Notes: generated by a model from the letters alone, not told the origin. A DNA stretch of 64,000 nucleotides from Microbotryum violaceum (GCA_001244265.2 CDLV01000004.1:3410001-3474000), one strand, 5' to 3'. Numbered from the stretch's first letter, positions 9,892-52,900 are shown. Translations and numbers: made by a program.

Positions 9892-12800
9892 TCATCGTTT
9901 CGGTGTCTGACTCCCACTATTCGTACTCCCCGTCGAGCTATCGCTCGTACCCCTCACACCCCTCGAAAAAGGGATCACAGGCGTCGAGCTTGTTCCCGTT
10001 CCCGTCCCTCCTCCCCCATTCGCAGGTGATGGTGCTCTCCCCGTCGCCGTCATTGAAGAAGGTTCCGAGATCGAAGCACCCGAGAGGGATCCTGTCACTC
10101 GCGGCCGAATTGGTGCCGAGGTTCGAGAGGATGAAGTTGTCCCCAAGGTGACTGTCGAATGATATGTCGATTGACCCTGATAAAACTCCGACTCATTCCC
10201 TTCGGCTTCCAAAAACGACGCCCTCCTCTTCTGATTAAGAGGGAACGTCGCCGACCCTGGCGAAACAAGCGACGAGAGGATGTCCGAAAACGAACCCGTG
10301 AAATCGGTCGGTGCTTGATGCCTCAACTTGTCCAACGGTCCTCCACTTCTCGCCGAGGGCGAAACAAGATAGGGACTTCCAGGTTGGGAGGGAAATCCAT
10401 TGCCTTCTTCAATGTAATCGTCCATCCCTTCGAGGGTGACGAGCGATTTCCTCTTCTCGCGCAGGATCGCCTTCTTGGTCGCTTGTCGACGACTTGCAGT
10501 GGCGTTGGAGAAAACGGGCAAGAGGTAGCGCTCGTCCAGCACGGTGAACCATTGACCGTCCCTCCATACTCGCGTGTTGTCCCCTTCCCCTGCGGTGGCG
10601 GCAGCTCCTGTCCCAGCTTTGGACACCGAAGGCAAGACGTCCCCTTCGGAATCCGAGCCGCTGTCCCGTGACGAATGGGAAGGCGATGAGGGTCCTTTGA
10701 AGGATCCATGCGGATGCAATGTCCCCATCTTTGGTACTGAAGAAGGTGGTGTGGTGGAAACCAACGACTTCAACGCCATCCGATCACTGTACGGCGAATC
10801 CATTGCCGACAGCACCCCCTCCTCCTCTTCATTGCGTCCTGCATGCCCATTTCCACCAAACTTGCGACTGTTCGGCAAAGTCCTCCTCGCTTTGTGAGTC
10901 GCCAATCCAGCGGCCTTGTTCCCTCCGGCTGCGGATCGAGTTCCCTCGATATCGCCTTCCCCGTTGTTAGTTATCGCGTACCCAGCTCCACCTTCATCAT
11001 CCGAGCTCTCGGGATCATCATCCTCGACGCCGGTTCGAATGCCAAGAATTTCAATCATCCTCCCGATCGTGCCACCAAAGACGACGACGGTTAACACGAC
11101 CGAGACCAGCACTGTCGTTCGTAAGGCGATGGCGTTGGGTCCTTTCATCCCTTCCGCCAAAGCGACACCGACGGCTCCTCGGAGCCCGGCCCAGAAGAGC
11201 ATCATCTGGTACGAGTGAGGTAGCTCATCGGGCCGGTTGCCGCGCGCTTTGAAGAATACGTTGATGCCTTTGGAGATGGGGAAGACGGCGCAGTAACGAG
11301 CGATGCAAACGGCGAACTGCGCGAGCATGCACGCCACTAGGGTCAGTCCTCTACGTCTTGAAGTTATAGGGACACGGGACACAGCACGCACTGCAGTGAC
11401 GAGGATGAACATGGGTTTGTACACGAGCTGCGTTTGGGTGAACAAGCTTAGTCCGAGGTAGATGAAGATAAAGTTCTCGCTCAGTTGCGCGAGTGAACCA
11501 AACATGTAACGCGACGTGCGTTGGGTCCGATGCGACATGTTGTGGTACGCGTAGTGCTTGAGCGTGATCCCGCAGAAAAGGAGAGAGACGATGCCTGCCG
11601 CATGTATCACGGATTCAGCCTGCATAGCCAGCGATGTGATGAGTCTGATGCGAAGAAACTCACCACTCATAGTCACGGCGTTGGAGAAGAAGTAACTCGT
11701 GTACGCGATCAAGAAGACGAGACAACTTTCAATTTCCGTGTAGCGACCTGTGCGCGAATGGACTCTCACAAGGTCAGCACGCGCTGCAACAGCGCCGTCA
11801 GAGCTCCGTTCAACGGACCCAATTCGGAATGCTTGAGCATCAACGAGCACGCCAGACCAAAGACGACACCGAGCAACATGGACACGCAGAAGGTGAGCAG
11901 AAAAATGCCGACGCCGTGGAAGAAGGAGAGCACATGTATTTTTTCTCCGTGAAATTGGGATAGCGTTCTGTGCGCGGCCCCGCGATTGTGAAATCAGCTC
12001 GAGAACGCAGCAGACTTTGGACCCGTTTCAGACCACTCACTCGAACATGACGATGGCGACGGCGTCATTGAGGATGCTCTCGCCAAAGATAACCGAGTAG
12101 AGCTTGGGGTCGACGTGAAGCGCATTGAAGATGGCCAGAATCGTGACCGGGTCCGTGGCAGAGAGGGTCGAACCAAACTGGAGACATTCGATGATGTTCA
12201 AGGATAGACCCTCGAGTCCGAGGAGCGAATAGATGTAGACGATGACTCTGTAGCACGGAGGAGAGAGGGGTGAGCCAAACATTTTTGCGGGTGGCTGAGG
12301 TGAAGAACAAGGCTGACCCGAGTACGACGGCCGAGATAAAGGTCCCGGCAAAAGCAAAGGTGATGATGACGCCAAAGTTGCGAAAAAAGTTTTCCTGTTG
12401 CCCACAAAAACATCAGGGATTGGATCTGCAAGCGATTTTTTGATCCAACGACGGAGGCGACGAACCTGCTTGAGCTGATAGCCCGAGTTGAGGATGATGG
12501 GTGGGAGCAGTACGTTGAGCAGGATGGTGCTCTTGAACGAGATCATGGTCTGGATGACGTTGCCCGGTGCGAGTCGTACGAGCAGACCGACACACATGCC
12601 TGGGGAGGGGACCATGTGAGGTCGCAGTCAGGAAGCGGCAAAGCGAAAGTAGCTTGTAGCTGGCGATGATGCTGTGGAACTGACCTGCAAACATGGCAAC
12701 GATAGTTTCATGGATGGAGCGAATCCTTCGAATCTTGAGGTAGTACGACACCCAAAAGGACAGGATGAGGAGCAAGAGCACCTGAGCGGGAGCGGGAGCA

Positions 12801-14135: not shown

Positions 14136-22980
<8,845 letters not shown>

Positions 22981-26093: not shown

Positions 26094-26885
26094 CGCTGGC
26101 GGGGCCCCTAACGGCAGGAATTGGCGTACTGGCCGACGCTATCCGAGGTCTGGAACTGCTTCAAGTGGACAAACAAATCTCAAGCTTGGAGGTGAAGAAC
26201 TGCGGGCCCGTTGCACTTTCCGTGCGACATTGAGACTGCCTGCTGCCGGTGCAGTTGACTTGACGAACCAGTTTGCGCGACGTTGTGTTGATCCGTTTTG
26301 CGAAGGCATCATTGCCGCTGAGCTTCGGCAATTGTTCAAGGTTGCTGGCGGCGGGGTCTGTGCGATTAGAGCGGGAGTCAGGAGGAGTCGGAATGTGCGG
26401 AGGAAGAACGCGAGCAACTGCCAACGTCTGTGCTGCCCCTCTGCTCTCCGTGAAGATTGTTGTACAGGAGACGGGATGTGAAAGCCTGCAGATGACTGCT
26501 CGGCAGTGGCAGAACTGGATGGTTGAAGGGACTACGCTCCGATGTGGCAGGCACGCAAAACCGGTCGTCTGGGGAGCAGAGAGTCATGTGCCACGCTGCT
26601 TTGATGGGAAATGGAACCTCGACGAAGGTAGGCGAAGCGGTCTCGCCGATGCTGAAACAGCGCTAGCTAACTGGGATGCGCTGGACCGAGAGCTGCCGAT
26701 GACGTCAAACCACGTGGTTTGTCTTTCGTTCTCTGACAAACTCTAGCCACACAGATTCATTTATATAGATAGGAGATTGTTTCGTTTCTTGGTTAAAATG
26801 TTCATTAGCCGTACACATTTTGAAACGCAAGGCGTAGATTAAAGGTTCATTTGCTTGCTCACTTCAAACTCATCTACCATGATGC

Positions 26886-29800
26886 TGTAAGGCCCGTGCG
26901 CCTGGGCCTTAGGAAGAGGGGACGCGCGCCTGGGCACTCTTAGTCTCTCTCCAGCGACTGATACGAGTGTCCAGGTGAGCACAAGGTGGATCAGAAGGCA
27001 TTGTCATACCAGCAACTGATACGAGTGTCCAGTGTCAATTCTACATACTTTGGTCCTGTGATCCTTGTCGTCGTCGCTCAGGTGTACACTCCAACGGGGT
27101 GTATTACACTTTTTTTTCACACCGGTCAAAGACGCACACTGCCACGTGCGCCAGCGACACACCCACGGAACGAACAAACGACAACGAACGGTAACAGACG
27201 AACATGGCGCGTGGCAAGAACTCCACCGCCCAACCAGCGCCACCATCGGCACCAGAGGAAAGGGAGGACAGCTCGGACGATGAACAGGAGGTTGCAACGA
27301 TGCCAAGGGGCATGAAGCTCAGCGCGCCCAAGCTTGCGAACGGCACGAAACTCACTCTCTCCTCGATCCGCGCATTCCTCAACGACATGGACAACATGTT
27401 CTTCCAGTACCAAGTGAAGAACATGCGACTAAAGATAATGTTCATCGCCAACCACATTGAACACGAGGCGCTCAAGGATTGGCTGGTGACGGCGACGGAG
27501 GAACGCACGTGGGACGAGCTTAAGGTCGCCTTCATCCGCAAGGCACTACCCTTGGATTTCGCCTTCACGACAGAGCAGCGTATTCGCCACAGCCACCAAG
27601 GCAACCACGACTACGCGACGTGGGCTTCGGGACTTCGGGCCTCACAGCTGCAGCTCGGCCAGACCGCCCTCAGCGACATTGAGTTCATCAAGATCCTACT
27701 GTTCAACATGGACCCTCAATTGAGCGTTGTTCTACGACAGAACGACCTTCTGTTGGGTACTGGCCTACACCAAGATGATTTAGACTACGTGGCGGCTTCA
27801 AAGGCGGCGCTCCCCAAGCTCAAGACATTATCTTACGAGGTGTTCGAGCGATTGGCAAGATCCCAATGGAATGTGATCATAGCGGTTCGTCCTGTAGCAA
27901 CTCCCCGAACGCAGACCTCGACTACGAGCCCAAAGACCAGCTCTGGCCGACCTTTTGTGACCTCGGCGACCACTCGACGCAGGCCGACGAGACTCACGGA
28001 CCCGATGAAGGATTATCTCTCGGGGAAGGAGGGATGCTTTAGCTGCAGACGCATCAACACGGATCACCGCGCGAGCGACTGTACAGCCAACTGGCAGCAG
28101 GCACCGGATGTCCCGGAGGGGTGGGCCAAGTTCGAAAAGAAGAAGGCGAAAGCGGCCAAGAACGACATCCTCCATCAGATTGCGGAAAACTCAGAAGACG
28201 ACATCTCAACGGATGAAGAAAACGAGTACGCCCCTCAGTTCATCTCCACCATCCCCATCACTCTGCACAACGACACAAATTTAAAGACGTTGCAGGCACT
28301 TGCTGACTCCGGGGCCTCTTCCTCCTTTATCGCAGATAAGGTGGTTGAGAAACTGGGGTTAGTTGTGCATCGTCTCCCTGTTCCTACATTGGTCAAAACT
28401 GCAATCAAAGGCCAAGCACGCGCGTTTCACGTTACCTCGTTCGTAAAGATTCCGATCACGCTCGAGAATGGCGCATGGGAAGCGGGACACACGATTCTGA
28501 AGGTGGCTAAACTGCAGGAGCCCTTGGAAGTGGTACTGGGGTTCAACTTCCTTGTAAAACACAAGGTTACCATCGACTTCGCGGCACACAAGATCCTGGT
28601 GCCACATCCGACCATGCCTGACGTAAAGATTGACCTTCTTGCGCCGGTCTTCGGACCCCACCCCCAGCGAGCCGCGGCGAGGAATGCCAAACGAAGCGAT
28701 AAAGCTCGGATCAACTGGCGTGCATTGATTGCCTACATCGACGGGGTCCAGCAAAGGGAAACGGAGTTGACGGAGTTGCGACGGCGGGAGGCAAAGCTAC
28801 GGGTCGAGTTTGCGGATCGGTTCCCGGGGGATATTCCTCCGGTTTCGACGTATGAATCACCGGTCCGACACCGAATCGAGCTGAAGGACGGAGCAACAAA
28901 ACCGAACTTGAAGGGTTATCGAGCGGCACACCGTTACCGGGAAGCCTGGAAGCGCCTGATTGATCAGCACGTCGCCAATGGCCGCCTTCGAAAGTCGTCA
29001 TCAGAGTTCGCATCCCCGGCGTTTGTCATCCCAAAGAAAGGTATGGATAAGGACCCGTCAATCCAACCACGCATGGTCTGTGACTACCGAGTACTCAACG
29101 AAGGGACGGTCCGAGATCGCACACCTCTACCACTTCCGGACAAGATTCTGTCGGTCTGCTCAAACGCGCGATTCTGGGGGAAGATCGACATGAAAAACTC
29201 CTTCTTCCAAACCAAGATGGCCGAGGAAGACATCCGGAAGACGGCGATTGTGACACCGTGGGGATTGTACGAGTGGACGGTAATGCCAATGGGACTCTGC
29301 AACGCCCCGGCAACGCATCAGCGCCGAGTCAACGAGGCACTCGGAGACCTTATCGGGAGCGTGTGTTTCGTGTACCTCGATGACATCACAATCTTTGCCG
29401 ACACCTTGGAGGAACATGAACGACGGGTGCGACTAGTCCTGGAGGCGCTGAGACGGGCGGATCTGTACGTATCGCCGAAGAAGACGGAACTGTTTGCTGC
29501 CGAGTGCTTTTTCCTCGGCCACCAGATCACTCGGGAAGGCATCAAGGTCAATCCTGACAAGGTGGAGCGGATCCAACAGTGGCCGCGACCAAGGACGGTG
29601 AAGCAATTGCGGGGATTCCTAGGTCTGGTGCAGTATCTGCGGAAGTTCATCGACAAGCTTGCGGATTTGACGGCGGTTTTAGTCCCGCTGACACGGAAAG
29701 GGGTGCATGTCGACGAAGGCTGGACGGGAGAGCACGACAAGGCGTTTGAGGCAATCAAGTCCTTGGTGGGCAACCTTCCTTCTCTACATCCCATTGACCA

Positions 29801-32076
29801 TTCCGACAAGGGCGACCCATTATGGCTGATGACGGACGCGAGCAATCGGGGAATCGGGGCGGCACTCAGTCAAGGAAAGCAATGGCAGACGGCCATGCCG
29901 GCAGGCTATTGGTCACGACAGTACAACCCAGCGGAAGGCAACTATGCAGCCCACGAGATGGAATTGCTTGCAATTGTGGACGCCCTTCATCACTGGCGGG
30001 CGGACCTTTTGGGTGTTCAATTCAAGATCCTCACAGACCACCACTCCTTGGCGGGCTTCATGAAGCAACCAAGCCTTTCACGACGACAAGCTCGATGGAC
30101 CGAACGACTGGCCGATTACGACTTCGAGATTGTATATGTACGAGGTCCAGAGAACACAGTGGCTGATGCATTGAGTCGTTACTCTTTCCCGGAGGAACCC
30201 ACAGCCGGCCGCCAGGCAAGCGACAATGTCAACGTGCTGGCGGAGGCAACTCTCGATCCGGCCTTCCTTCGCAAACTCAGGGACGGTTACCGCAAGGACT
30301 CGCAATGTCAACAAGCTATCAAGAACATCGACTCAACACCAGCCTACTCAGTCGACAATGGAATCGCATGGTTTGAGGGACGGATCCTCCTGCCAAAGAC
30401 GGGGAACTTTTGGGAGGACGCGCTACATGACGCACATGACGCTGCGTGCCATTTTGGACTACACAAGACGTACGAACACCTGCGCCGCAACTTTATCTGG
30501 TCGGGAATGAAGGATGCATGCAAAGATTACGTTGAGTCCTGTGCTGCTTGTCAGACAATGAAGATGCATGGCACCGGTTTTGCCGGTCGGATCCACAATT
30601 TGAATGTGCCTGACCGGCCAATGCGGGAAGTTGGCCTAGACTTTGTCGGGCCACTTGTACCTAGCAATGGTAATGACGCACTGCTTACGGTAACAGATCG
30701 CCTTTCAGGCTACGTTCGCCTCATCCCCTGCCGCACGACGGACGACGTGACTACCACGGCGGACCGGTTCTTTGAGGGGTGGCATCGACACTTCGGCATG
30801 CCACGAGTGCTGGTCTCCGACCGCGACAAGCTCTTCACAAGCGAGTTCTGGCGAGCGTACATGGGCCAGCTGGGAACGAAACTGGCAACATCGACGTCTT
30901 TCCACCCACAAACGGATGGCCAAAGCGAGCGAACAAATCGGACCGTGATCCAAGTCCTGCGAACAATGGTCAACCGACGGCAAAATGACTGGTCAAAGCA
31001 CTTGGCTACGGTGGAGTTTGTGATCAACTCCAGTATGAACAGGTCGACGGGGAAGACGCCATTTGAAGTGGTACTTGGGTTCACGCCGGAGCTGACACCG
31101 ATCACCCCAGTGGAGCCCTCAACCACGTCACAGGCAGTCAAATCCATCGTGGAACAACGTGAAGCAGCGGTTGCGGAAGCCCGAGACAATTTGGCAATTG
31201 CAAAGATCCGACAGGCCAACCAGAGCAACAAGGCGAGGAAACCGGAGCCCGGGTTTGCAGTTGGCAACATGGTCTTAGTCAACTCGCGGGATCGACGACT
31301 GCGGTACAAGGCCGATGGGGAAGCACGGTCAGCCAAACTCTTTCCCCGGTTTGACGGCCCCTACGAAGTCCTAGCAGCACGACCCGAAACCTCAAATTAC
31401 AAGCTGAAGCTCAAGGCGAGGGACAAGTCGCACAACGTCTTCCACGCCTCCAAGCTCCGACGCTGGGTAAAGAACAATGGGGTGGTGTTCCCAGGACGAG
31501 AGGCAACGGAACCAGCGGCCATTATCGTCCAAGGAAACGAGGAGTGGGAGGTAGAACGGATTGTGGACGAAAAGGGGAAGGGGTCAAGGAAGAGGTTCTT
31601 GGTGAAATGGAAGGGGTGGGCAGAGAGCGACAACACATGGGAGCCATGCTCACACCTGGAAGACACCGCAGCGTTGGAAGAGTGGGAGAGTGGGAAGGCG
31701 GGGGAGGACAAGGCAAGGAGGGGAGGGTGTAAGGAGGGAGGGGAGTTTGGTTTAGGTGGTGGAGAGTGTAAGGCCCATGCGCCTGAGCCTTAGGAAGAGG
31801 GGACGCGCGCCTGGGCACTGGAGCGAGGGGAGTTTGGTTTAGGTGGTGGAGAGTGTAAGGCCCGTGCGCCTGGGCCTTAGGAAGAGGGGACGCGCGCCTG
31901 GGCACTCTTAGTCTCTCTCCAGCGACTGATACGAGTGTCCAGGTGAGCACAAGGTGGATCAGAAGGCATTGTCATACCAGCGACTGATACGAGTGTCCAG
32001 TGTCAATTCTACATACTTTGGTCCTGTGATCCTTGTCATCGTCGCTCAGGTGTACACTCCAGCGGGGTGTATTACA
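26886..32076 (+). mobile_element. Full-length Ty3/Gypsy chromovirus copy C
   Basis: 223-bp LTRs at 26886-27108 and 31854-32076 with 3 differences seen. TSD GATGC at 26881-26885 and 32077-32081. Confidence 0.98.
27204..31793 (+). CDS. Intact single-ORF Gag-PR-RT-RNaseH-IN-chromodomain polyprotein (1529 aa)
   Basis: Zn knuckle CFSC..H..C, ADSGAS, YLDD, TDAS, HHCC, integrase core (LDFVG, SDRD, QSERTN), 'DGPYEV' and a C-terminal chromodomain. Confidence 0.97.
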
Positions 32077-33777
32077 GATGCATCATTGGCGTCCTGAACA
32101 TTCCTTCTACGTCTCTGCTTGGGTTGCACAAACTAAGCAAGGAGCGGAATGGCCGAAGTTCTTTGCGGATATGAATAGTCTCTTGACTTCTCGAGCAGTA
32201 GCGGTTTCTGTACCAATCACGTCACATAAAGATTGTGTTCATTTCCGCGATGCCACTCCTATATCACTTTCACAACAAAAAGGTACCCCGCTGAAAGATC
32301 ATTTGATGCTCCATTGGTTTGTTTCTCCGGCCTCCCGCCTACTTCAAACTTTGAACTTGCTCGCCAGCAGCCTTGATCTGTTGGGCCAATGACTAAGTCA
32401 GTACCAGCTCTTGGCTCTGCGCCGCACCAAACACTCACGATGGCACTGCAAGTCGTTTCCGCATTTGCCCCTTGTGGCACCGTGTAGACGACGCCAAGTT
32501 TTTTGGCGAGGTCCACCGTCATTTTCCTGCAGTGGAGAGTTGCCCAACCATGGCTGAGCCAAGTTCTTGCAGTGTTGCATCAAGCGTAACTAGTACCACC
32601 GGCGGGAGGTTGCATTTTTTTTTTCGGGACGGTCAGTGTCAGCGTCAATCAATGTATATTCAGTTTCGGCAAGAAGTGACTCACACTTGGACTTCTTTGC
32701 TGGCGGAGCCCGAGGGGGTGCCTCCAGTGCGCTCAACACACGTTTGCTGCCTACAATGGCCTGAGCGGTGTGTGGCATAGGATAGTAAGCAAGTTTTAGT
32801 AAAGGAATTGCCGATCGGGTTCATGCCGCAAGCCAACTCTCTTTACCGTGACCCGGCACCTATGGCCACCTCCTCAACCCCAGCTTCCTCCTCCAAACTT
32901 CCTGCGTGCCCGGCTTTCCCTTTAACTTCGTATCGCTTGAGAGACGCCTGAATGGCGAGTGTTGGGGTTAGGACAATGTCCCCCATAACCATATCAATGA
33001 CGTAACCGACAACAACTTGAGGGGAAGCATTTGCGCCTTTTCCCTCAAGCGAACCTTTGCCCTTTCTCGAGGTCTTGTAGAGGGACTTTTTGCGAGCGAT
33101 TGTGGCGGCGCAGTTCCACACCTTGACAAGTACATCCTCAATCGTCTACTGCGTCCACTTTTTGATGTCTTGTCTGATGTCCGCCAACGCACCAAACCTG
33201 CGGTTGTATGTAGCCAATTGATTGGCAAGTGCGAACAGCTTGAACATGTCGTCGCCCAGAGCGCTTGCGATAGAATCGCCGACCTTGTTCAGTCGCTCTG
33301 TAGTTGTGTAAGAACTCGGTCAGTTGTCCACGCTTCATGAATGCTGACAGCCTTTAAACCTAGGTGAACGCACTGGGGACGGCCGTAGCTGGATAGGTTA
33401 GAGGGAACAAAGATTGAGCATCGCACTCCGGTGTCGCTCGGGCTGCAGACGACCGAAAGTGCTCACCTCTCATCACCATTGGGTACGCTTCGTTGGCCAA
33501 GCGCCTCTGTCAAAAGGAGTTTCGAGATCACCAAGTCAGAGATGCCGCTCGCCCATGCCAACGCGCGGCATCTCGCGATCGAGTCAGGGCTCTAACCGAC
33601 TTACGGCTTCGTTGTAGCACTCATCGTCGATTTCCTGATCATCATCTTCCGAGTCCTCCTTGTTTCCTCCTTGATCATCGTCGTCGCCATCCGAGGTGTC
33701 TGCCCATCCGTTGCCCTGCATTTGTGGCGCACGCAAGATGGATCAGCTCACATCGAAAGTGGGCATGTTGAGTCAGA

Positions 33778-35234: not shown

Positions 35235-38200
35235 ATGCGGTACCTGTGCCAATGCTTCCTGAATGGCTGTGGTGTGCGCGCCAGCAGTCGGATCCATGCA
35301 AAGTCGACCATATACAACCATCGAAAAGAAGATGAGTTGTATTTCAACAGCCTTTGCAAGCGTGGATTAGACGTATCGGACGAGCTCTTACAAGCCATCG
35401 CGTGGTCCGGCACAAAGCTCGAACCCGAACCTCTCGACTCGCTGCATCCCCACCCCAGCCCATCACCTTCGAACCTCGATCCGCACCATGATGATGATCT
35501 CGGTCATAACATGCTACCAAAAGACACTTCACAATCGAATTATTCCGATTTGACCCCTGAATTTGATGATCAAGGTCCTGCATTCGACCCCGAATTTGGC
35601 GGAGGGGGGGACTCCCCATTTGGCCAAGGCGCGCTCCCTCTTGACGACAAGCATAATAGCGAATCCGACAAGGAGACAGTGTTCAATATGACACCCAAAA
35701 CTCCCCACAACTCTGGATCCTCGTCGAGCGAGGACAATGCGGACCACAACAAGAGCGAGGGGAACGTCGAGGGAAGTGGCGATAACGAGGACAATAGAGG
35801 CACGAGCTGGAACTGGCTCAAGACAGGGCTGGCTGAGTACGTCCGGGACGAGATTGGCGGTGATGACGACGATCATTTGGCGAATGTGCAAGCTGAGCGC
35901 GATCTATGGAACGAGGAAATCGACATCAATGTGACTGATCCCGACGTCTTACGAGCCCTAGATCCCATTGAGACGCTGTATCATCCTGCGGCGGATGCGC
36001 CACGCGGTCCACCACCTTGTTGCACGCAATTATCCGATCTCAGTCCTGAGCAGATGTTGTCCCTCCGTTGCTACATCCGAGCCGAGGGAAGTGGCATGAG
36101 CGTGGAGCAATACAACGAGCTACTTGCGGAAGCATGCCATCAGAAGGGTGTGGACCTGAAGGACTGCATGTTGCTTGAGAGCACAGGTCGCTGGTTCAAT
36201 GCGGTATCGGGCCTTGTCCCCGAGTACTTCAATACCTGTGTCCATGGTCATGTCGAATTTGTCGGACCGCGTGCTAATCAGATGAGCTGCGACGCCAAGG
36301 CAAAGAAGCCTGGGCCCATCAACCCGCGGACAAACAAAGGTCAGCAGGTGCCCGCGGTGTGACGAAGCGAGGTTTGAGACGGAGCGAGACTGTTGCGGTG
36401 GGACTGTACGCAAGCCTCGACAGCAGGCCATTTTCCTGGACCCGGTACCCAGAATCGAGGCCGCGTTCGCCAGTGCTCAGCAGGCCAAACTGCTTCGGTC
36501 CTTATACGAGGACCTCATGTCGTTTATCAAGAGGCGATCCGAGTCGGGCAACCCGGACACAGGGGGCTACTTCGATCTATCATCCGGTCAAGCACTGGCA
36601 CGAGCGCACAACCTTGGCGCTTTCCATGACGAGAGGAATTGCTTCTTTGGAATTTCATCAGATGGCGCTCTAGTGCAGGAACAACAGACAGGCTCGTTGT
36701 GGATATGGTCGGTCACGCTTTACAACATTCCGATCAATTTGGGTTGCTACAGTCGTGACAACACATTTATTCTCATGATCGCTCCGTGCGCAACGACACC
36801 GACCAACCTCGACACTTTTGCGTGTATAATCTTGAAGCGGTTCGAGGAGGCGGCCCGAGGGATTTGGTGTTTCGATTCGCTCACACAAGTGTGGTTCCTC
36901 TGGCGCGGCATCATCCTCTTCTTCCTTGCGGACCTCATGGGTCAAGCGAAGCAGTCGGGGTTCGCAATGAGCCGCGCTCTCGTCCCCTGCATGAATTGCG
37001 AGATCATCGCCGGAACCAAGGACAATGGCGCCGGACGCTTTCCAGTTGAGGACGGCCGCGCAACCTACGAAGTGAAGAAGAGGGTCAGCAAGAAGAAGCG
37101 TAAGACGGACAACGATGAAGACGACAACGGCGACGCCAACAATGATGACGATGCCGACGACGAGGGCGGCAATGACGTCGTGAGGGGTCAGAAGAAGCGG
37201 GGCAGAACCTTATCGAGAGCGCAAAAAAAAAGTCAACATGATACGGCCAGTCGACGGCTACTACGCGCACAACGGTGCTCCGAGCCCCGAACCCCGAACG
37301 CTGCAACGCTACAAAGCCCAAATCTCGAAGGCATTCGATCCCAAGCTCGACGCCAAGACAAGAGCCCAGTACCGCACTCGCTTCGGGATCACGGCAATCC
37401 CGCTCGCGGCCAGGTTGAGACTCTTTGACGTTCCCTCCTCGTTCACCACCGACATCGCCCATCTGTTGGCCACCAACATCCCAACTCTGATGTGGAAGTC
37501 GCCAAAAGCTTGGCAGTCCGTACCCAACGGGAAAACAATTCTTGCAAAAGTGGGCACTCTGATTGAGGACGCCAAGTGGACAACCCCAAGCGCGTTCGGC
37601 AGGTATCTTCGCAATCCTCACACCAAGGCCAACACAAATTACACGATGCACGAATGGATTCAATTTGTATTGAACGTATCGGTCCCCGTCCTCCGCAATG
37701 TGGGCATGCTGGGACCATACATCGCGCACTGGGCCGACTTTGTCAGGCTGGTCCGGCTCGTGTTGGATTGGAGCCCCTCCAGCGCCAAGAGGATTGACTT
37801 GATTGATCGCCTTGCCAACCGGTTCGTATGCGGACAAGAGCGCCTCTTTGTCAAGTACGATTACAAGAGTATCAAGGCCATGCTGTTGCTGTCCATTGAC
37901 TTTGGCATCTTGGAGAATGGATTTGCATCGTTGGAAATCTCAGCCTGGTGTGGCAGATGGTACTCGAACGCATCATAGGCTATGTCAAGAAGCCCCCGAT
38001 GTCGAACAGCGCACCGGTCAAGAAGGCGAGTCCCTTCGCGGCATCTGCTCTGTCCGAGAACGCTCTTGCTGAGGGCAACAATCCTCCCTCCTTATCTTGC
38101 AGGCGGTTACCAGGCAGCAGATGACGTGCTGGGCGATGGCTGATCCGGCGGTGGCAGGGTTGCGGGATGAACTGTTACCAGCGCCATCGCAGCCCAAGAC

Positions 38201-38271: not shown

Positions 38272-38508
38272 TGTAGAAATCGAACAGCGATGTGCTGAAC
38301 GAGTTGGCGGCAGTGGCAAGCCAATGAGTTCGTAATCAAGTGGGATTGCAATAAAGGAGTTCTTCACACACCTGAACGAGTTGGCGGCAGTGGCAAGCCA
38401 ATGAGTTCGTAATCAAGTGGAGAAGAAGAAGGAAAGACGCGATTGGACCGCGCGGCTAATACAAATAGAGACGCGCGCTAGGCAGATTTAAGGCAAGAGT
38501 AATCTACC

Positions 38509-41500
38509 TCAACACCCCCCTTGCTCTTGGCCTGAAATGCGGCGCAGACCGATGGCGTCACAATGACGCTGGAAGACTACTCGCGGCAGCGGCTTGGTGA
38601 AAATGTCGGCAACCATATCGTGGGTTGGGATGTAGGTGACCGAGATCTCTCCATTCCGAACATGCTCCCGAACGAAATGCTCCAACATGCGCAAATGTTT
38701 GGTGCGAGCGTGGAAGACCGGATTCTGGGTGAGCGCTATAGCTCCCTGGTTATCCCGAGAAGACGTAAAGGGGACGACGTATCGAGACCGAGTTCGGTGA
38801 GGAGCGAGCGAAGGAAGACAGCCTCCTTGGCTGCATGCGAGAGGCCCAGGTACTCCGCTTCCGTGGATGAACAAGCTACGCGAGGTTGGAGACGAGATGA
38901 CCATGAGATGGCCCCACCCGCCAGTTTGAACAAGTAACCCATAGTGGACCTCGACGTCTGTATGTCCGATCCCCAGTCCGAGTCAGAGTACCCCTCGTAC
39001 CCCAGCAGAGGCGCACTGGTGCGCGTGTAGTGTATGCCAAGATCGAGCGATCCTTTGATGTAACGAAGGACGCGTTTGGCCGCCTCGAGGTGAGTGTCGC
39101 TAGCCTTGCCGACGAAACGTGACAGATATTCGACGGAGTGGGCTAGATCAGGGCGAGTGGCAACAACAGCGTACATGAGTGAGCCGATCATGGAACGGTA
39201 GATGGCATTGTCGGCGGAGTCTGTATCGGGTTCCGGCGAAAGCTGTAGGTTGGCTTCCATGGGTGACTTGCAGGGGTTGCAGTCGGACATGTTGAAGCGA
39301 TCCAAGACGTCAAGGAGGTATTGACGCTGGAGAAGGGGGATCCCGCCATCGTCGTGTCGTACGACCTGAACCCCGAGTACCCATTCGGCCGGGCCGAGGC
39401 GTTTGACTCCGTAGAGGGTGTCGAGTTGGTCAAGGACTCGATCGATTTCCCCGAGATCCGGCCCAAAGAAGAGTAGATCGTCGACGTAGAGTGCAATGTA
39501 GTGATCACCCCCAGCGTCCTCATGACGATAGATGCATTCGTCGCAGGCGAGGCGACGATAGCCGAGACTCGCGAGCGTGGCGTTGATCGTGTCGTTCCAC
39601 ACTCGACCTGCCTGCTTGAGACCGTAGATCGATCGATGAAGGCGGAGGCATTTGCCTTCGTAGCCTTCGATGCCAGTTGGAACCCGCATGTAGATCTCCT
39701 CCTCCAGCACACCGTGAAGATAGGCCTTGTCAACGTCGGCTTGAATGATGTGGTGGCCCTTCGAGGCCGAGTGCGCGATGAGCGTGCGGATGGAGGTGTA
39801 CTTAGCCGTGGGTGAGAAGGTGTTGTTGAAGCTGTTTGGGCCTTGTGCGCAGCCCTGTGCAACAATGCGGTTCTTCAGTGAAACCATCTTCCCGGCTTTG
39901 TCGCGTTTGGTTCGAAAGACGTGACGACTTGGTAAGATCGTAGCTCCTTTGGGCACGGAGGATAGTCCGACGACGCTGAACACCTTGAGATCGTCTTTCA
40001 TCAAGCGGAATTCCTCAATGGCTCCCGCTTTCCATGCCGCGGCGTGAGGATGGCGCATGGCCTCATTCCACGTGGTGGGATCACTGCTCGGGAGCGAGAA
40101 CGGGTCCTCTGGTTCCGAGAGCGGTCGATTCGCCGTCGAGGTGTCAATGCCCGCCGCGTCGAGATCAGCAACAAGTTCGGTTACCTCCTTGCCTAGAGAG
40201 AATGCGAAGGCAGAAGGGGTCGAGCGCAAAGATGCTAGGGCGCCGTAACGAGGTGGGGGGTTGCGCGGGCGCGAACCCAGGGGTGGCTGCCACGCGGGCC
40301 CCGGTGCGTCGAAACGTAAAGCAGCCGGAAGCTCCGCTTGGTCGGGGGGTGCCTGATTGGCATGCTGGTCAGGGAGTACAACGACTTCGTCATCGTCGTC
40401 GTCGTCGCCTGCGACGGGCGCGTGAGCTGCTGTGATGCCCTCCCGCCTGGCTGGGAACTCGTCCTCGAAGAATTTGACGCTGCGCGATTTGAAAACTTGT
40501 CTGGTAGCGGGGTCAAACAGTCGGTATCCCTTGGATTCGAGATCGTAGCCGACGAATACGAGTGGAATGCCCCGCGGATCGAGTTTGCTGCGCGCTTCGG
40601 TGGTAGCTGCCTTCCACGCTCTGCAGCCGAATACGCGGAGATGGCCGGCTGACGGCTTCGATCCGTGCCAACGCGTGTGTGGTGTGACGCCTGAATTTGC
40701 CGAGTGTGGTGAGCGATTTTTGACGTAGACATATGTCGCCAATGCCTCGGCCCACAAAGCGTGAGATAGACCCGACTGGTGGAGCATTGATCGGACACCC
40801 TCGGTGATCGAGCGATTTGCGCGTTCGGCAACCCCGTTTTGCTGAGGGGCATCGGGAATCGAAAGCTGACGAGTGATGCCTTGTTCTTCCAGGAAGCTCG
40901 AGAACTCGTTCGACAAGAATTCACCACCGTTGTCGGAGCGGACTGCCAGGAGTTTTCTCGACGAGGAGCGCTCGACCTTTGCAAGCCACGACTTGAAGGC
41001 CGCAAAGGTATCGGACTTGTGCGACATCGGAATTGCCCAGAGATATCGGGTGTAATCATCGACAATGACGAGGGCGTATTTTGCGCCGCCTAACGACACG
41101 GCGCCGTCGAACGCAAGAAGGTCCATGTGGACTCGATCAAGAGGCTGGGCTGAACGATTCGACGCGACGGTGGGGAAAGGGTGATGTGTGATCTTCCCAG
41201 CCTGGCATGTATCACATTTCAAGTCTGCGTTCAATGCTACCTCCATGTTGACTCCCAGCACAGCCTCAGTTGAGATCAGCTGTCGTAGAGCGCGTGGGTG
41301 AAGGTGAGCGAAACGTCCGTGCATGATGGAGACGGGGACGGCCGCGAACGCACGTGGGGACGCACCCGGTTGCTCGATGAGAGTAGTGACGTCGACTAGG
41401 GAAGCATGCATGTGGTACAAGCCGTTCGTGATCTCCCCGGTGTGGCAAATCGACCCGTCGACTGAGACCGTTGCTTTGCCTCGGGAAAGGTTGATGTCGT

Positions 41501-42567
41501 AGCCCGCGGCGTTGGCGCGACTGGCGGAGAAGAGGCTGACCGGCGCGCTGGGGACGAACAACGCGTGGTGGAGTTGACCGATGCTGCCGTCGAAGGAGCG
41601 AACGACAGCGGAACCGACGCCTTCGATCGAATTGACCGCCTCGCCCGTGATGCCCTCGAGCGGAGCAGGCTTGCACTTGCGGAAGTTGGTGAAACAAGCG
41701 CGATCGTTGACGATGTGATGCGTCGCGCCGCTGTCGAGGATGAGGGAAGGTTTGGCCAATGTGGACATCGCTGCGGTGAGGTATCCGCGGACCGGGCCGT
41801 CTACCAACGTCGAGATGTCGGGAGCAGCGGCGAGTGATGCGGACGGCGCGGAGGAGGCCTTGGACTTCTTGTCCTTGACGGGGCATTTTCGATTCCAGTG
41901 AGGACCTCCACAGTGTCGGCACGGAGCTGACGGAGTCGATGAAGATCTGTCCGTCGCGGTCAAGCTAGCTACCATCGCCACGGGCTTGTGTGCCGGCGTG
42001 GATTCAGCTTGAGTCTGAAGCGTTTGAAGCGCTTCAATCGGATCAGGGAGCTTGTCGAGGTCTTGACGGAGCGCTTGAGTATAGTACTCCTTGTAGAGGT
42101 CCTTGCCAAAGTGGATCAAGCGTATCGAGATGACCTGGTCAAAGGTAAGGTTGTATCCCGAAAGAGTGTTAAACAGCTCAATGGTGTTGGCTTGGTACTT
42201 CTCGAACGCGTTGACACCGGAGGGAGGCGGACCCGCATCGAGCAGGGCTTGGAGCTTGATGAAGATGTCGGTGACTGTGCCTGCTGCGACCGCTTTCTTG
42301 ATCATCTTCAAGACGTCGGTGGGAGTGTGATCGAATCCATCTTTGATCTGCTTCTTGATGTTGAGGGAGACCGAGCGCCTCAAGAGCGCGATCGCTTGGA
42401 AGTTGGCGTGCTCCAGGTCGGTGCGCGCGTTGGGTTTCTGAATGGGCGTCGCAAGCGTGCAGTTCCAATAGTCGCCCCGAGAGCTCCACGGACGTCGTTG
42501 ATCCATTGCGACCAGCCTCCCGCGTTGCGCAGGTGGCATGACGGGTCGATATCGCGGGGTTTGACAT
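38509..42567 (-). CDS. Copia Gag-PR-IN-RT-RNaseH polyprotein (three apparent 1-nt frameshifts, probably artefacts)
   Basis: CRHCGGPHWNRKC, LDSGAT, SDNGGEF, QQNGVAER, DVDKAYL, LYVDD, SDSDW, SSTEAEY and ADIFTK in Copia domain order. Confidence 0.92.
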
Positions 42568-42657
42568 AGACGATAGAGGTTGTTCCCCCTGATACCACAG
42601 TGTCCGTATCACCGGGCATGATGACTTGATGACTCGAGTTGGCTGAGCCGCTACGTT

Positions 42658-42669
42658 GGGCTCGTAACC
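42658..42669 (-). other. Primer-binding site of the internal tRNAiMet-fragment type
   Basis: GGTTACGAGCCC directly after the 5' LTR. It resembles the Ty5/copia-type GGTTATGAGCCC with 1 mismatch. Confidence 0.7.
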
Positions 42670-42917
42670 TGTAGAAATCGAACAGCGATGTGCTGAACGA
42701 GTTGGCGGCAGTGGCAAGCCAATGAGTTCGTAATCAAGTGGGATTGCAATAAAGGAGTTCTTCACACACCTGAACGAGTTGGCGGCAGTGGCAAGCCAAT
42801 GAGTTCGTAATCAAGTGGAGAAGAAGAAGGAAAGACGCGATTGGACCGCGCGGCTAATACAAATAGAGACGCGCGCTAGGCAGATTTAAGGCAAGAGTAA
42901 TCTACCTCAACATGAAG

Positions 42918-46769: not shown

Positions 46770-49700
46770 CGCGAAGGGGGTTTTCCCGGTAGCGACATTG
46801 AGAGACGAGTTGATGGCATACTCACAGACAGCAAGGCACTCCGCCCAGTTGGATTGCTCCTTGTTGACGAGAGCTTGAAGAATCTGGAAGGCAGTCTTGT
46901 TCGTTTTCTCGCTGCGACCGTCCGTCTCCGGGTGAAACGCTGAAGAGAGCTGGAGCTTGATATTCAGGCGCTTGTGCAGGGCAGTCCAGAACTTGCTTGT
47001 GAACAGCTTGTCCCGGTCCAAGACAATGCTTTGAGGGAGGCCAAAAAGGCGGTGCCATCCTTCATGGAAGCGCGCGGCAACCTCCGCTGCGGTGTCAGCT
47101 TTGCGGGCAGGGCGCAAACGGACGTATCCCGACAGGCGGTCGGTGATTGTCAACACGCGGTCAAAGCCTTTGTTGGCGGGCAGCGGTCCAATAAAATCGA
47201 TGGCAATGTCGGCCATGGGTCGCGTCGGGACAGGGAGCGAGTGGAGTTTGCCAGCGATGCGAGTGGTACGAGCCTTGGTCCGCTGACAAGAATCACATTG
47301 TTGGACGTAGTGCTTGACGTCCCGGGAAATGTTGGGCCAGAAGTATGCCTGCTGAACGGTTCGGTACGTTTTCATATCACCTAGGTGCCCCTGCGCATCA
47401 TGAGCATTGTGAAGGATGGACTCACAGAGCGGGGCTAGTGATGGAATGATAAGCCGGCCCCGTAAATACAGCAATGCATCAACAATCTTGAATTCCGATG
47501 TGACCGAGCCAATGTTAGACATGGCATGCTGGCAGAATGGGTCGGTCTTGTACGCGTCGAGGATCTGCTGCTTGACAGCATCCGAAAGCTTGACGTGGGA
47601 GACAGCGGCCACTAGGGTGGGCAGTGGGTCGGTGAAAGAGTATCGACTCATGGCGTCGGCTACGATGTTGTCCTCGCCGGGCAGGTATCGAAGGTCGTAA
47701 TCAAATTCGGCCAGGGTGTCCAGCCAACGGGCTTGTCGGCGAGAGAGAATGGTGCGCTGGGTCTGGAAGTGCTTGAGTGTGGAGTGATCAGTGAGGATGT
47801 GGAAGTGGCCGCCAAGCAAGTCAATGCGCCATTCCTTGAGTGCTTCGACAATGGCAAGGAGTTCCTGCTCGTGTGTGGGGTAGCTGCGTTCAGCGGGTAT
47901 GTATTGCCTGGACCAGTACGCCATGGGGCGCCCCACCTTCCACTCCTGACCCTGGAGGAGGACACCACCAATTCCCTGATTGCTTGCATCAGTCATCACC
48001 CAGAACGGAGCGGCGTTGGCGGAGTGGTCGGGCGGCCGAAGGCAGTCAAGTGAGGTGACGATGGCCTTGATGGCTTTGAAGTGGCGGACCTCATTAGGTG
48101 TCCAGAGCGTGGCAATAGATGAGAGTCCTTGGCGCGTCAAGGGAGTCAGTGCGGCGGTGTGCTCAGCAAGGCCAGGGATGAACTTGCAAAGATACTGCAC
48201 CAGCCCGAGGAAACCCCTGAGTTCCTTGACCGTCTTGGGCAGTGACCAGTCTTCAATGCGCTGGATCTTCTTGGGGTCTGCATGCACCCCGGCGCGGCTG
48301 ATGATGTGGCCAAGGAACGAGCACTCCGCAGTGGCAAGGTTGGTTTTGGTTGGCGAGCAATAGAGTTTGGCACGGCACAGCGCATCCAGGACTTGGCAAA
48401 CACGGGCCTCGTGCTCCTCCAGTGTATCCGCAAAGATGGTGACCATGTCGTCAAGGTAGACGAAGCAGATGGTGCCAAGCAGGCCTTGGAGCGCCTCGTT
48501 GACACATTATTGGTGGGTGGCAGGGGCATTGCAGAGGCCCATGGGCATGACGGTCCATTCGTACAAACCCCAAGGTGTGGACACGGCCGTCTTATGGATG
48601 TCTTCCTCCGCCATCTTGGTCTGAAAGAAGGAGTTGGTCATGTCAATCTTGGCCCAGAATTGCGCATTGGAGCACGTCGAGAGAATGTTGTCCGGCAAGG
48701 GCAGAGGCGTGCGGTCTTTGATGGTGTGCTTGTTGAGCTCGCGGTAGTCGTTCACCCAGCGCGGGGCGCTCGTGGGATCCACGTCGCAGCCCTTCTTTGG
48801 GATGATGAACGAGGGTGACGAGTATGCCGACCGAGAGGGGCGGAGGCGACCGGCCGCGAGATGTTCCTGTAGTAGTAAGTACCATGCCTTGCGATACTTC
48901 TTCGGGAGGGGTATCCTCGAAGGTTGACAACAGTGGACGGAGTGTCAAGCTCAATACGGTGTCGCACCGGGGATTGGTACAAGTGTACAGGCGGGATATC
49001 CGCAGGAAAACGGTCGGCAAACTCCGCTCGGAGGCGATGGTCAAGCGCGGCAAGGCGGAGCTGCTCCTCGTCGTCAGAAACCGGAGCAATTGCGGCAACC
49101 CGCGCGGCAGCGCACAGCTGGGACGACAGCGCCAGCAGGTCTATAGCGTGTATGGGGTTGGCTTTGCAGGTGAGGTGTGGCTGAGGGAAGAGGCCGAGCT
49201 CCATCTTGTGCCGATAGATGAAGTTGCCTCCCAAGATGATTGCAAGGTCCTTCCCAAGGGGCGCTACCTCGGCGTACGTCGGTCCTGCGGCCCAGAGCCC
49301 ATTGGCCAGCTCGAGCGGGATTTGAACAAAGTGCGTGCAGGTGACGACAGTGGGGGCTTGGTTTTGCATTGCAAGGGTGTACTTCGAATGCTGTTCCAGG
49401 GCGCGCCGTTCCAAACCCAGTTGCTGAACAAGCTCCTCACTTAGAAACGTTTGAGGCAATCCCGAATCGACTAGGGCAGAGGCAAGGAGAGTACCATGAG
49501 CGCCGGCTAGGGAGACGGGTAAGGGGGAAAGGGATGCGGTGCGTACGAAGGATCGTTGTCGTCCTCCGAGTCGCTGCTGAGGCCGGCGAACACGGTTGAA
49601 TCGCCAGTTTCTTGGAAGGTCCGAATGGCCGCCACCATACGGGGCCCGGGGCGAGGCGCAGGAGCGGTCGACGTTGGCGTCGACGGAGTGGCGGACGCTC

Positions 49701-49914
49701 CCATGGGTGACAAGTAGCGGGGGCAGTTGCGCGAGATGTGGTCGGCGTTGAGAGTGCGGCAGCGATAGCATCCGTGGTTCTGGTCCAGGTACGTGCGCTC
49801 GTCGACGGTGAGTCGGGCGACGGGGCGGGGGCCACCCGTGATCGGGGAATGGCCGGTAGCAGCTGTCGCAACGTGGGGTGCAGCCGAGGCTGCAGCGGGT
49901 CGCGAGTACGTGGG
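46770..49914 (-). mobile_element. Ty3/Gypsy element E (third family), 3' part: gag end, PR, RT, RH, IN; degraded and truncated
   Basis: CYRC..H..C knuckle, [24 protein letters not shown] core. Stop at 48507-48509. No 3' LTR. Confidence 0.93.
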
Positions 49915-52900
49915 TGTAATACACCCCGTTGGAGTGTACACCTGAGCGACGACGACAAGGATCACAGGACCAAAGTATGTAGAATTGACACTGGACACTC
50001 GTATCAGTCGCTGGAGAGAGACTAAGAGTGCCCAGGCGCGCGTCCCCTCTTCCTAAGGCCCAGGCGCACGGGCCTTACACTCTCCACCACCTAAACCAAA
50101 CTCCCCTCCCTCCTTTCCTTGTCCTCCCCCGCCTTCCCACTCTCCCACTCTTCCAACGCTGCGGTGTCTTCCAGGTGTGAGCATGGCTCCCATGTGTTGT
50201 CGCTCTCTGCCCACCCCTTCCATTTCACCAAGAACCTCTTCCTTGACCCCTTCCCCTTTTCGTCCACAATCCGTTCTACCTCCCACTCCTCGTTTCCTTG
50301 GACGATAATGGCCGCTGGTTCCGTTGCCTCTCGTCCTGGGAACACCACCCCATTGTTCTTTACCCAGCATCGGAGCTTGGAGGCGTGGAAGACGTTGTGC
50401 GACTTGTCCCCCGCCTTGAGCTTCAGCTTGTAATTTGAGGTTTCGGGTCGTGCTGCTAGGACTTCGTAGGGGCCGTCAAACCGGGGAAAGAGTTTGGCTG
50501 GCCGTGCTTCCCCATCGGCCTTGTACCGCAGTCGTCGATCCCGCGAGTTGACTAAGACCATGTCGCCAACTGCAAACCCGGGCTCCGGTTTCCTCGCCTT
50601 GTTGCTCTGGTTGGCCTGTCGGATCTTTGCAATTGCCAAATTGTCTCGGGCTTCCGCAACCGCTGCTTCACGTTGTTCCACAATGGATTTGACTGCCTGT
50701 GACGTGGTTGAGCCCTCCACTGGGGTGATCGGTGTCAGCTCCGGCGTGAACCCAAGTACCACTTCAAATGGCGTCTTCCCCGTCGACCTGTTCATACTGG
50801 AGTTGATCACAAACTCCACCGTAGCCAAGTGCTTTGACCAGTCATTTTGCCGTCGGTTGACCATTGTTCGCAGGACTTGGATCACGGTCCGATTTGTTCG
50901 CTCGCTTCGGCCATCCGTTTGTGGGTGGAAAGACGTCGATGTTGCCAGTTTCGTTCCCAGCTGGCCCATGTACGCTCGCCAGAACTCGCTTGTGAAGAGC
51001 TTGTCGCGGTCGGAGACCAGCACTCGTGGCATGCCGAAGTGTCGATGCCACCCCTCAAAGAACCGGTCCGCCGTGGTAGTCGCGTCGTCCGTCGTGCGGC
51101 AGGGGATGAGGCGAACGTAGCCTGAAAGGCGATCTGTTACCGTAAGCAGTGCGTCATTACCATTGCTAGGTACAAGTGGCCCGACAAAGTCTAGGCCAAC
51201 TTCCCGCATTGGCCGGTCAGGCACATTCAAATTGTGGATCCGACCGGCAAAACCGGTGCCATGCATCTTCATTGTCTGACAAGCAGCACAGGACTCAACG
51301 TAATCTTTGCATGCATCCTTCATTCCCGACCAGATAAAGTTGCGGCGCAGGTGTTCGTACGTCTTGTGTAGTCCAAAATGGCACGCAGCGTCATGTGCGT
51401 CATGTAGCGCGTCCTCCCAAAAGTTCCCCGTCTTTGGCAGGAGGATCCGTCCCTCAAACCATGCGATTCCATTGTCGACTGAGTAGGCTGGTGTTGAGTC
51501 GATGTTCTTGATAGCTTGTTGACATTGCGAGTCCTTGCGGTAACCGTCCCTGAGTTTGCGAAGGAAGGCCGGATCGAGAGTTGCCTCCGCCAGCACGTTG
51601 ACATTGTCGCTTGCCTGGCGGCCGGCTGTGGGTTCCTCCGGGAAAGAGTAACGACTCAATGCATCAGCCACTGTGTTCTCTGGACCTCGTACATATACAA
51701 TCTCGAAGTCGTAATCGGCCAGTCGTTCGGTCCATCGAGCTTGTCGTCGTGAAAGGCTTGGTTGCTTCATGAAGCCCGCCAAGGAGTGGTGGTCTGTGAG
51801 GATCTTGAATTGAACACCCAAAAGGTCCGCCCGCCAGTGATGAAGGGCGTCCACAATTGCAAGCAATTCCATCTCGTGGGCTGCATAGTTGCCTTCCGCT
51901 GGGTTGTACTGTCGTGACCAATAGCCTGCCGGCATGGCCGTCTGCCATTGCTTTCCTTGACTGAGTGCCGCCCCGATTCCCCGATTGCTCGCGTCCGTCA
52001 TCAGCCATAATGGGTCGCCCTTGTCGGAATGGTCAATGGGATGTAGAGAAGGAAGGTTGCCCACCAAGGACTTGATTGCCTCAAACGCCTTGTCGTGCTC
52101 TCCCGTCCAGCCTTCGTCGACATGCACCCCTTTCCGTGTCAGCGGGACTAAAACCGCCGTCAAATCCGCAAGCTTGTCGATGAACTTCCGCAGATACTGC
52201 ACCAGACCTAGGAATCCCCGCAATTGCTTCACCGTCCTTGGTCGCGGCCACTGTTGGATCCGCTCCACCTTGTCAGGATTGACCTTGATGCCTTCCCGAG
52301 TGATCTGGTGGCCGAGGAAAAAGCACTCGGCAGCAAACAGTTCCGTCTTCTTTGGCGATACGTACAGATCCGCCCGTCTCAGCGCCTCCAGGACTAGTCG
52401 CACCCGTCGTTCATGTTCCTCCAAGGTGTCGGCAAAGATTGTGATGTCATCGAGGTACACGAAACACACGCTCCCGATAAGGTCTCCGAGTGCCTCGTTG
52501 ACTCGGCGCTGATGCGTTGCCGGGGCGTTGCAGAGTCCCATTGGCATTACCGTCCACTCGTACAATCCCCACGGTGTCACAATCGCCGTCTTCCGGATGT
52601 CTTCCTCGGCCATCTTGGTTTGGAAGAAGGAGTTTTTCATGTCGATCTTCCCCAGAATCGCGCGTTTGAGCAGACCGACAGAATCTTGTCCGGAAGTGGT
52701 AGAGGTGTGCGATCTCGGACCGTCCCTTCGTTGAGTACTCGGTAGTCACAGACCATGCGTGGTTGGATTGACGGGTCCTTATCCATACCTTTCTTTGGGA
52801 TGACAAACGCCGGGGATGCGAACTCTGATGACGACTTTCGAAGGCGGCCGTTGGCGACGTGCTGATCAATCAGGCGCTTCCAGGCTTCCCGGTAACGGTG

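Follow-up and report, generated by a model that had tools for sequence, protein, structure and literature searches.

A short intron at the gag/protease junction of a retrotransposon from Microbotryum violaceum, skipped in some assembled contigs and kept in others, probably serves as a switch between a messenger RNA (mRNA) for Gag-Pol and one for Gag alone. This Ty3/gypsy chromovirus, here called C, is intact, spans 26886-32076 and carries gag and pol in a single frame. It lies in a nest of transposable elements that makes up the window analysed here, 64,000 nucleotides (nt) of M. violaceum (GCA_001244265.2 CDLV01000004.1:3410001-3474000), within which all positions are counted. The gag-pol open reading frame (ORF; 27204-31793, plus strand) is uninterrupted over 1529 amino acids (aa). 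The intron takes two forms on the plus strand, one of 110 nt (28226-28335, codons 342-378; the major form in the contigs) and one of 115 nt that uses the alternative acceptor AAG/G (28226-28340, codons 342-380), and includes the codons of the catalytic Asp-Ser-Gly of the protease.

Contig joints, splice signals and coding consequence

Element C was found in 18 public runs, none of them on record as RNA. Contigs of four of these runs (X1, X3, X5 and X6), which are assembled contigs and not reads, were placed on 26600-32400 at 90% likeness. X3 and X5 are two samples of one study and their kind is only guessed as RNA. Two of the 12 joints listed for the four runs start exactly at 28225, namely 28225→28336, which skips 110 nt, and 28225→28341, which skips 115 nt. 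Both are present in X3 and again in X5, both have GT..AG ends and the first is free of microhomology. Leaving out one flank joint and three backward joints, eight skip joints remain inside the element, and only these two have GT..AG ends on the plus strand at any allowed register. In addition, 28225 is the last base of the upstream contig of X3 and 28341 the first base of downstream contigs in both X3 and X5, as would be expected if the assembly graph forked at splice sites. The rough depths of the junction contigs are 9.55 + 3.2 in X3 and 9.7 + 5.5 in X5, with the intron-bearing contig at 2.92 and 7.41, respectively; differences in depth between gag and pol in these two runs were set aside, since contig depth cannot rank the parts of a gene.

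These joints support the hexamer GTACGC at the gag/protease junction (28226-28231, plus strand) as a real 5' splice site, with 28225, the second base of codon 341, as the last base of the exon. The original prediction, made from the DNA alone, had proposed a Gag-only mRNA spliced from this donor; the joints at 28225 in the two runs guessed as RNA support this, and the frame that they create ends right after Gag. The same prediction had placed the acceptor 3.7 kb downstream in the long terminal repeat (LTR), and in this it was mistaken about the partner of the donor: the joints lead to 28336 and 28341, and no contig in the four runs links 28225 to 31943 or 32001, although contigs may miss rare forms.

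The grammar of host introns was taken from six introns inferred by ORF continuity in a Na/H-exchanger gene (9892-12546, minus strand), the removal of which leaves 741 codons open. These introns are 69-75 nt long; all six have GTNNGY donors (GTTCGT, GTCAGC, GTGAGT, GTCCGT, GTGAGT and GTGCGT) and CAG acceptors, with CTGAY-like branch points 18-26 nt upstream. Judged by its sequence, the short intron of C fits this grammar. Its GTACGC donor is followed by a branch-point-like CTGAC (28303-28307, plus strand) 29 nt before the first acceptor and by a candidate pyrimidine tract (17 of 20 positions) ending in the acceptor CAG (28314-28335, plus strand). These signals fall at synonymous positions. The putative branch point consists of the active-site Asp codon GAC and a preceding Ala codon, GCT, which is rare in the element (13 of its 143 Ala codons), and the tract uses TCT and TCC codons for three serines.

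The combination is not readily explained by the encoded protein. Four intron-like configurations occur in the ORF of C and this one alone has at least 16 pyrimidines in 20, a level that a configuration attains in one of 300 codon shuffles. When the ORF was recoded synonymously 200,000 times with the protein fixed and its own codon usage, the donor, branch point and YAG were retained together in 8.0% of the recodings, and with the further demand for at least 16 pyrimidines in 20 all signals were kept in 0.098%. A GTNNGY at the position of the donor is retained in 60% of the same recodings, the hexamer being mostly dictated by the conserved Tyr-Ala codons with only its first G free, and the ORF of C contains 23 GTNNGY sites.

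Removal of the 110-nt form reads GA/A TAA, with the TAA at 28337-28339 (plus strand) in frame, and leaves a Gag of 341 aa that ends ...EENE. The 115-nt form instead meets an in-frame TAG at 28360-28362 (plus strand) and yields Gag with seven further residues. The 341-aa Gag with an immediate stop that had been predicted is what the 110-nt splice would encode, but the stop is this TAA and not the TGA of the LTR. The match to the Pfam protease domain begins at residue 363 and the catalytic Asp-Ser-Gly codons lie inside the intron, so that intron retention is needed for the protease. Skipping of 110 or 115 nt keeps the primer site, the polypurine tract and the LTR sequence in the spliced RNA. Loss of the polypurine tract, which had been expected to prevent the spliced RNA from completing reverse transcription, thus does not apply to the splice that is observed.

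The proposed switch would work as follows. An RNA that retains the intron would encode the full Gag-Pol, the intron itself coding for 37-39 residues that include the catalytic Asp-Ser-Gly, and could also be used as genome. Removal of the intron would shift the frame and bring a stop at once or after seven codons, so that the spliced RNA, if translated, would give a Gag of 341-348 aa with its zinc knuckle and no enzymes. Provided that the junction contigs represent RNA, the spliced share of the transcripts would set the ratio of Gag to Gag-Pol, a ratio that may matter to the element.

Conservation among copies and alternative explanations

Four further copies lie in the window. Identity to C is 99.3% for copy D (54943-49914, minus strand), 95-97% for copy A (14138-17916), which is truncated at one end and has lost an internal segment, and 80% for copy B (22982-17914, minus strand). 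Copy E is a distant, degenerate relative into which D has inserted, with about 71% identity to C over a single matched stretch. The five copies thus represent only three lineages (A/C/D, B and E). The first base of GTACGC is at 28226 in C, 14736 in A, 21652 (minus) in B, 53602 (minus) in D and 49546 (minus) in E. As originally noted, its codon phase is the same in all five despite a change of codon from GAG to TCG: the G of the donor is the third base of that codon and is followed by TAC GCx (Tyr-Ala-Pro). With only three lineages and a hexamer largely forced by Tyr-Ala, the conservation of the donor in five copies weighs less than it looks.

More is conserved than the donor. Homologous 110-nt introns are present at 14736-14845 (plus strand) in A, 53493-53602 (minus strand) in D and 21543-21652 (minus strand) in B, the copy of the 80% family, in which the donor, the pyrimidine tract and the two acceptors and stops are all kept and the branch point reads TTGAC. 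All four copies (A-D) meet the stop after one codon in the 110-nt form and after seven codons in the 115-nt form. None of these four genomic copies in the window lacks the intron segment (0/4), so the joined form is not a common DNA form there.

The third codon positions of B and C are 63% identical. Seven runs of at least ten identical third positions occur within 27204-31000, and three of the seven fall inside 28217-28382, over the donor (28217-28247), the branch point and tract (28298-28328) and the acceptors and stops (28334-28382), and variation between the two copies peaks in the middle of the intron. The last of these runs (28334-28382, plus strand) comprises 16 consecutive codons with identical third bases against a background of 0.63, and contains the site of a published Microbotryum gypsy-like polymerase chain reaction primer (28344-28366). 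Of the other runs, one is at 27620-27650 and three lie in 30551-30704. The latter belong to a second hotspot of conserved synonymous sites between the two copies, in the integrase core (30537-30704), where the identical third positions come in runs of 16, 22 and 11 against the same background; a cis element or a patch of recombination could account for it. A joint found in X3 and X5, 30727→31185, begins just past this hotspot.

Several observations weigh against the switch. The kind of X3 and X5 is guessed and both belong to one study. Their junction contigs carry just 20-29 letters on the shorter side and were placed at 90% likeness; such joints may arise from repeats or from other organisms, and processed, intron-less DNA copies would yield identical contigs, although these would themselves imply past splicing. 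The 110- and 115-nt joints are absent from X1 and X6. X1 has no joint at 28225 and keeps the intron, with a flat depth near 48 over pol and covered flanks, and by this flat depth looks like a genomic run; X6, from another study, likewise has no such joint, but the place is barely covered there. Among the copies, B has TTGAC and not CTGAC as branch point and has lost the active-site Gly, so that B itself is defective, and E keeps only the donor. Scans of metagenome_contigs and viral_contigs gave no relatives as DNA outside the window. A protein search with Gag gave eight matches, all from source-named Microbotryum species, and none of the eight ends in the ...ENE of the spliced stop (0/8); one of these models has an ab initio intron that starts at the GT of the second acceptor and one runs through the LTR, and these are uninformative. 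Finally, a premature stop followed by a 3' untranslated region of 3.4 kb should attract nonsense-mediated decay.

In copy E the GTACGC (49541-49546, minus strand) is followed by neither the homologous branch point nor the homologous acceptor, and only by a non-homologous candidate intron of 76 nt with CTCAT at 26 nt, 17 pyrimidines in 20 and TAG. Its gag frame ends 13 codons past Ser-Tyr-Ala-Pro and the protease (VDSG) lies in another frame (49400-49560, minus strand), a split that could reflect either an indel in a copy no longer active or another way of arranging gag and pol.

An explanation of the joints as real but functionless, through cryptic host splicing of a transposon transcript or through DNA copies that lose the segment, with conservation arising from protein constraint and ancestry, is unlikely, although it has points in its favour. 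Half of the signals overlap a protease motif that is conserved at the protein level in all relatives, the full set of signals is found in only two lineages, the kind of the runs is not on record, and deletion joints without canonical ends (27938→31453 and 30727→31185) show that variant copies are present in the same runs. However, protein constraint would have to account for signals that survive so small a fraction of synonymous recodings with the protein fixed. Harmful splicing could be removed by single synonymous changes, yet the third positions here are frozen between families that differ at 37% of third positions elsewhere. Slippage of DNA would not be expected to give two deletions that share one GT start and both end in AG, the first without microhomology, and none of the four genomic copies in the window has lost the segment.

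The long intron of the original prediction, in which the gag donor is spliced over 3717 nt to an AG at LTR position 89 (31942) and the LTR supplies G TGA to a Gag-only mRNA without pol and polypurine tract, as in Drosophila copia, is highly improbable. The arithmetic is correct, since joining 28225 to 31943 does read GA/G TGA after 341 codons. A CTRAY pentamer lies 13 nt before the AG in three LTR families, its consensus kept through substitutions; an identical 23-nt block 58 nt downstream may itself serve as acceptor (a joint in X3, with 18 ambiguous letters); and contigs run past the LTR AG in the context of the 3' LTR, so that this AG is probably in the transcript. Against this stand the lack of contigs for 28225→31943 or 28225→32001 in the four runs, where rare forms could have been dropped, and the joining of the same donor to 28336 and 28341 in two of them. 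Moreover, 3717 nt is about 50 times the length of the 69-75-nt host introns, the pyrimidine tract of the LTR acceptor is poor (9 of 20), and the sequence after the LTR AG is a consensus donor, which suits a mini-intron or recursive site in the LTR instead. The short intron acting as a switch between Gag-Pol and Gag remains the preferred explanation of the joints at 28225.

Other joints in these runs were also considered. A 58-nt skip (28577-28634), found in X3 only, was rejected as an intron: it has GT..AG ends on the minus strand only, a weak donor and 4 nt of microhomology, and is taken as a deletion variant. The joints 27938→31453 (5-nt microhomology) and 30727→31185 have high contig depth in both X3 and X5 and probably come from derivative copies in which an internal deletion has left gag and the 3' end in place. 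A 65-nt skip found in X5 only (30212→30278) can be read as GC..AG at register +3 and could represent a second, minor intron within the integrase region.

Long terminal repeats and surroundings of the element

The LTRs of C (26886-27108 and 31854-32076, both plus strand) are each 223 nt long (TGTAAGG..TATTACA), have the TG..CA ends of an LTR retrotransposon and are flanked by a 5-bp target-site duplication, GATGC, at 26881-26885 and 32077-32081. The polyprotein between them comprises Gag with a CX2C..H..C zinc-knuckle-like motif, protease, reverse transcriptase, RNase H, integrase, an SH3-like domain and a chromodomain, with Pfam matches to RVP_2 (residues 363-466), RVT_1 (609-775), RT_RNaseH (870-972), Integrase_H2C2 (1070-1121), rve (1145-1234) and Chromo (1448-1495). 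The order protease-reverse transcriptase-RNase H-integrase with a C-terminal chromodomain assigns C to Ty3/gypsy and not to Ty1/copia. The segment after the 5' LTR (27109-27160) has no TGG-type tRNA primer-binding site and begins with C and a run of T. At the other end, an 87-nt tandem duplication (31733-31906) made of the polypurine tract and the first 53 nt of the LTR has the stop codon of the ORF inside it; the duplication is absent from D.

The motif on which the long intron was based is real as a sequence. A branch-point-like pentamer and AG/GTGAG are present in the LTR of each family, in E in the 5' LTR, just as had been described. In the 3' LTR of C the motif CCAG/GTGAGC occupies 31939-31948 (plus strand; LTR positions 86-95), and no contig joins it to the gag donor in the four runs. 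It is exact at 14221, 26971 and 31939 on the plus strand and at 18046, 22886 and 54849 on the minus strand, and E has CTAG/GTGAGT in its 5' LTR. Counted as a 10-mer the motif has eight matches in the window at no more than one mismatch, a number that 12 of 100 shuffles also reach and that is not beyond chance. The CTRAY pentamer exactly 13 nt before the AG is CTGAT, CTAAC or CTGAC in the three LTR families, with every substitution keeping the consensus, and at this fixed distance it is a non-trivial feature of the LTR. With a candidate branch point and 3' site directly before a consensus 5' site in all three families, the juxtaposed acceptor and donor resemble the layout of a recursive (zero-length-exon) splice site.

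Rather than an acceptor and stop for gag, AG/GTGAG[C/T] may be the 5' splice site of a 58-nt mini-intron within the LTR, or a juxtaposed site of the recursive type; this is held tentatively. The intron-like unit (GTGAGC..CTGAT..CCAG) spans 31943-32000 in the 3' LTR and 26975-27032 in the 5' LTR of C (both plus strand) and has a 23-nt direct repeat at its borders: in A/C/D and in B, a 23-nt block that ends in CCAG recurs 58 nt downstream, and the two repeats share family-specific substitutions. GTGAGC matches a host donor, CTGAT lies 13 nt before the second CCAG, and the unit is 58 nt long in A/C/D and in B. A joint in X3 (31924→27015; 18 ambiguous letters, depth 20.4) corresponds to exact removal of 31943-32000 with GT..AG ends, and an LTR contig of X5 also lacks the unit, which X1 keeps (contig 26957-27108). 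On the other hand, deletion between the 23-nt direct repeats would give the same product as splicing, and E has the donor without the second repeat. The deleted form also exists in genomic DNA, since the 3' LTR of D (49914-50079, minus strand) lacks exactly the 58-nt unit and is the one LTR without the motif, whereas the 5' LTR (54721-54943, minus strand) keeps the unit. D, a young insertion with intact 5-bp target duplications (CCCAC), thus has two LTRs that are set apart by a deletion resembling a splice.

Elsewhere in the window a Copia-type element (38272-42912, minus strand) has 243-nt LTRs that are 100% identical and a single gag-pol ORF of 1267 aa, and is probably very young; scanned by the same criteria, it has no intron-like configuration at its gag/protease junction. 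The window also contains a tnp2-type transposase (36517-37428) and a Copia gag fragment (57842-59662).

Relation to other retroelements

It has long been asked how retroelements with a single ORF come to make capsid protein in excess of their enzymes. Most retroviruses and many Gypsy elements do so by ribosomal frameshifting and readthrough. Tf1 of Schizosaccharomyces pombe, the subject of Atwood et al. (1996), reportedly gains its excess Gag after translation, by regulated degradation of Pol proteins. Tf1 resembles C as a fungal single-ORF Ty3/gypsy element that needs more Gag than enzymes; degradation achieves this in the one, whereas splicing is proposed in the other. Drosophila copia makes a 2-kb Gag RNA, a Gag-only mRNA spliced from the end of gag. 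This Gag-only message from the gag end is shared with C and was the template of the original prediction. The intron of copia takes in almost all of pol, whereas in C only 110 or 115 nt would be removed and pol would stay in the message as untranslated sequence.

The sequence removed by splicing in copia is given as about 2.9-3 kb of pol (PMC3735527, PMC5580714). BARE1 of barley, a Ty1/copia element, has at its gag end an intron of 104 nt that is alternatively spliced and the removal of which causes a frameshift and a stop three codons on (PMC3735527). The likeness to C is close: both have one gag-pol ORF and a small intron from the end of gag (104 nt against 110/115 nt), in both, removal changes the frame and a stop is reached within a few codons, leaving a spliced RNA that can encode Gag only, and spliced DNA copies of BARE1 were not found in the genome, to be set beside 0/4 copies here (PMC3735527). 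The two differ in that BARE1 is a Copia element of a plant and C a Ty3/gypsy chromovirus of a basidiomycete-like fungus; BARE1 has separate promoters and RNA pools and translation of its spliced RNA has been demonstrated (PMC3735527), whereas in C it is proposed. The intron of C, in contrast to that of BARE1, holds the protease active-site codons and two acceptors.

EVD and other Ty1/copia elements of Arabidopsis produce a subgenomic shGAG mRNA by splicing coupled to premature polyadenylation (PMC5580714). As in C, the intron of EVD is centred on the protease, its splicing shifts the frame to a new GAG stop and its retention gives GAG-POL; unlike in C, it takes out the protease entirely and has about three times the length of host introns (PMC5580714). 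For Ty3/Gypsy elements of Arabidopsis, the same paper reports no such conserved splicing (PMC5580714). Cer1 of Caenorhabditis elegans is, like C, a single-ORF Ty3/gypsy element whose genomic RNA has usable splice sites, but its spliced cerv mRNA, assembled from five exons, encodes an accessory export protein and is not a Gag-only message (PMC10309623).

Element C would work in the manner of BARE1, EVD and copia, but all cases described so far are Ty1/copia elements, a superfamily to which it does not belong. Searches of the full-text literature, which did not cover subscription journals and supplements, turned up no fungal or Ty3/gypsy element with Gag-only splicing, and the published paper on Microbotryum gypsy elements makes no mention of splicing or gag. 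It is possible, if rather doubtful in this full form, that fungal Ty3/gypsy chromoviruses, independently of the Copia elements of plants and insects, have evolved a retained-intron rheostat of Gag to Gag-Pol written in the synonymous sites of the protease active site, so that protease comes from unspliced RNA only. In the same proposal a co-evolving splice module in the LTR (the juxtaposed acceptor and donor with the 23-nt repeat) would process the leader or the 3' untranslated region, perhaps marking translated as against packaged RNAs.

Annotation that treats such ORFs as intronless, or that places ab initio introns elsewhere, as in the eight database proteins, would misdescribe their products. 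If the switch is real, it provides a searchable signature for fungal elements, namely a donor at the last gag codon, a short frame-shifting intron and an immediate stop. Poorly spliced transposon introns have been reported to trigger RNA interference in basidiomycetes, and an intron of this kind would therefore also bear on genome defence in this group. The splicing answer to the need for excess Gag would then have arisen in another superfamily and another kingdom.

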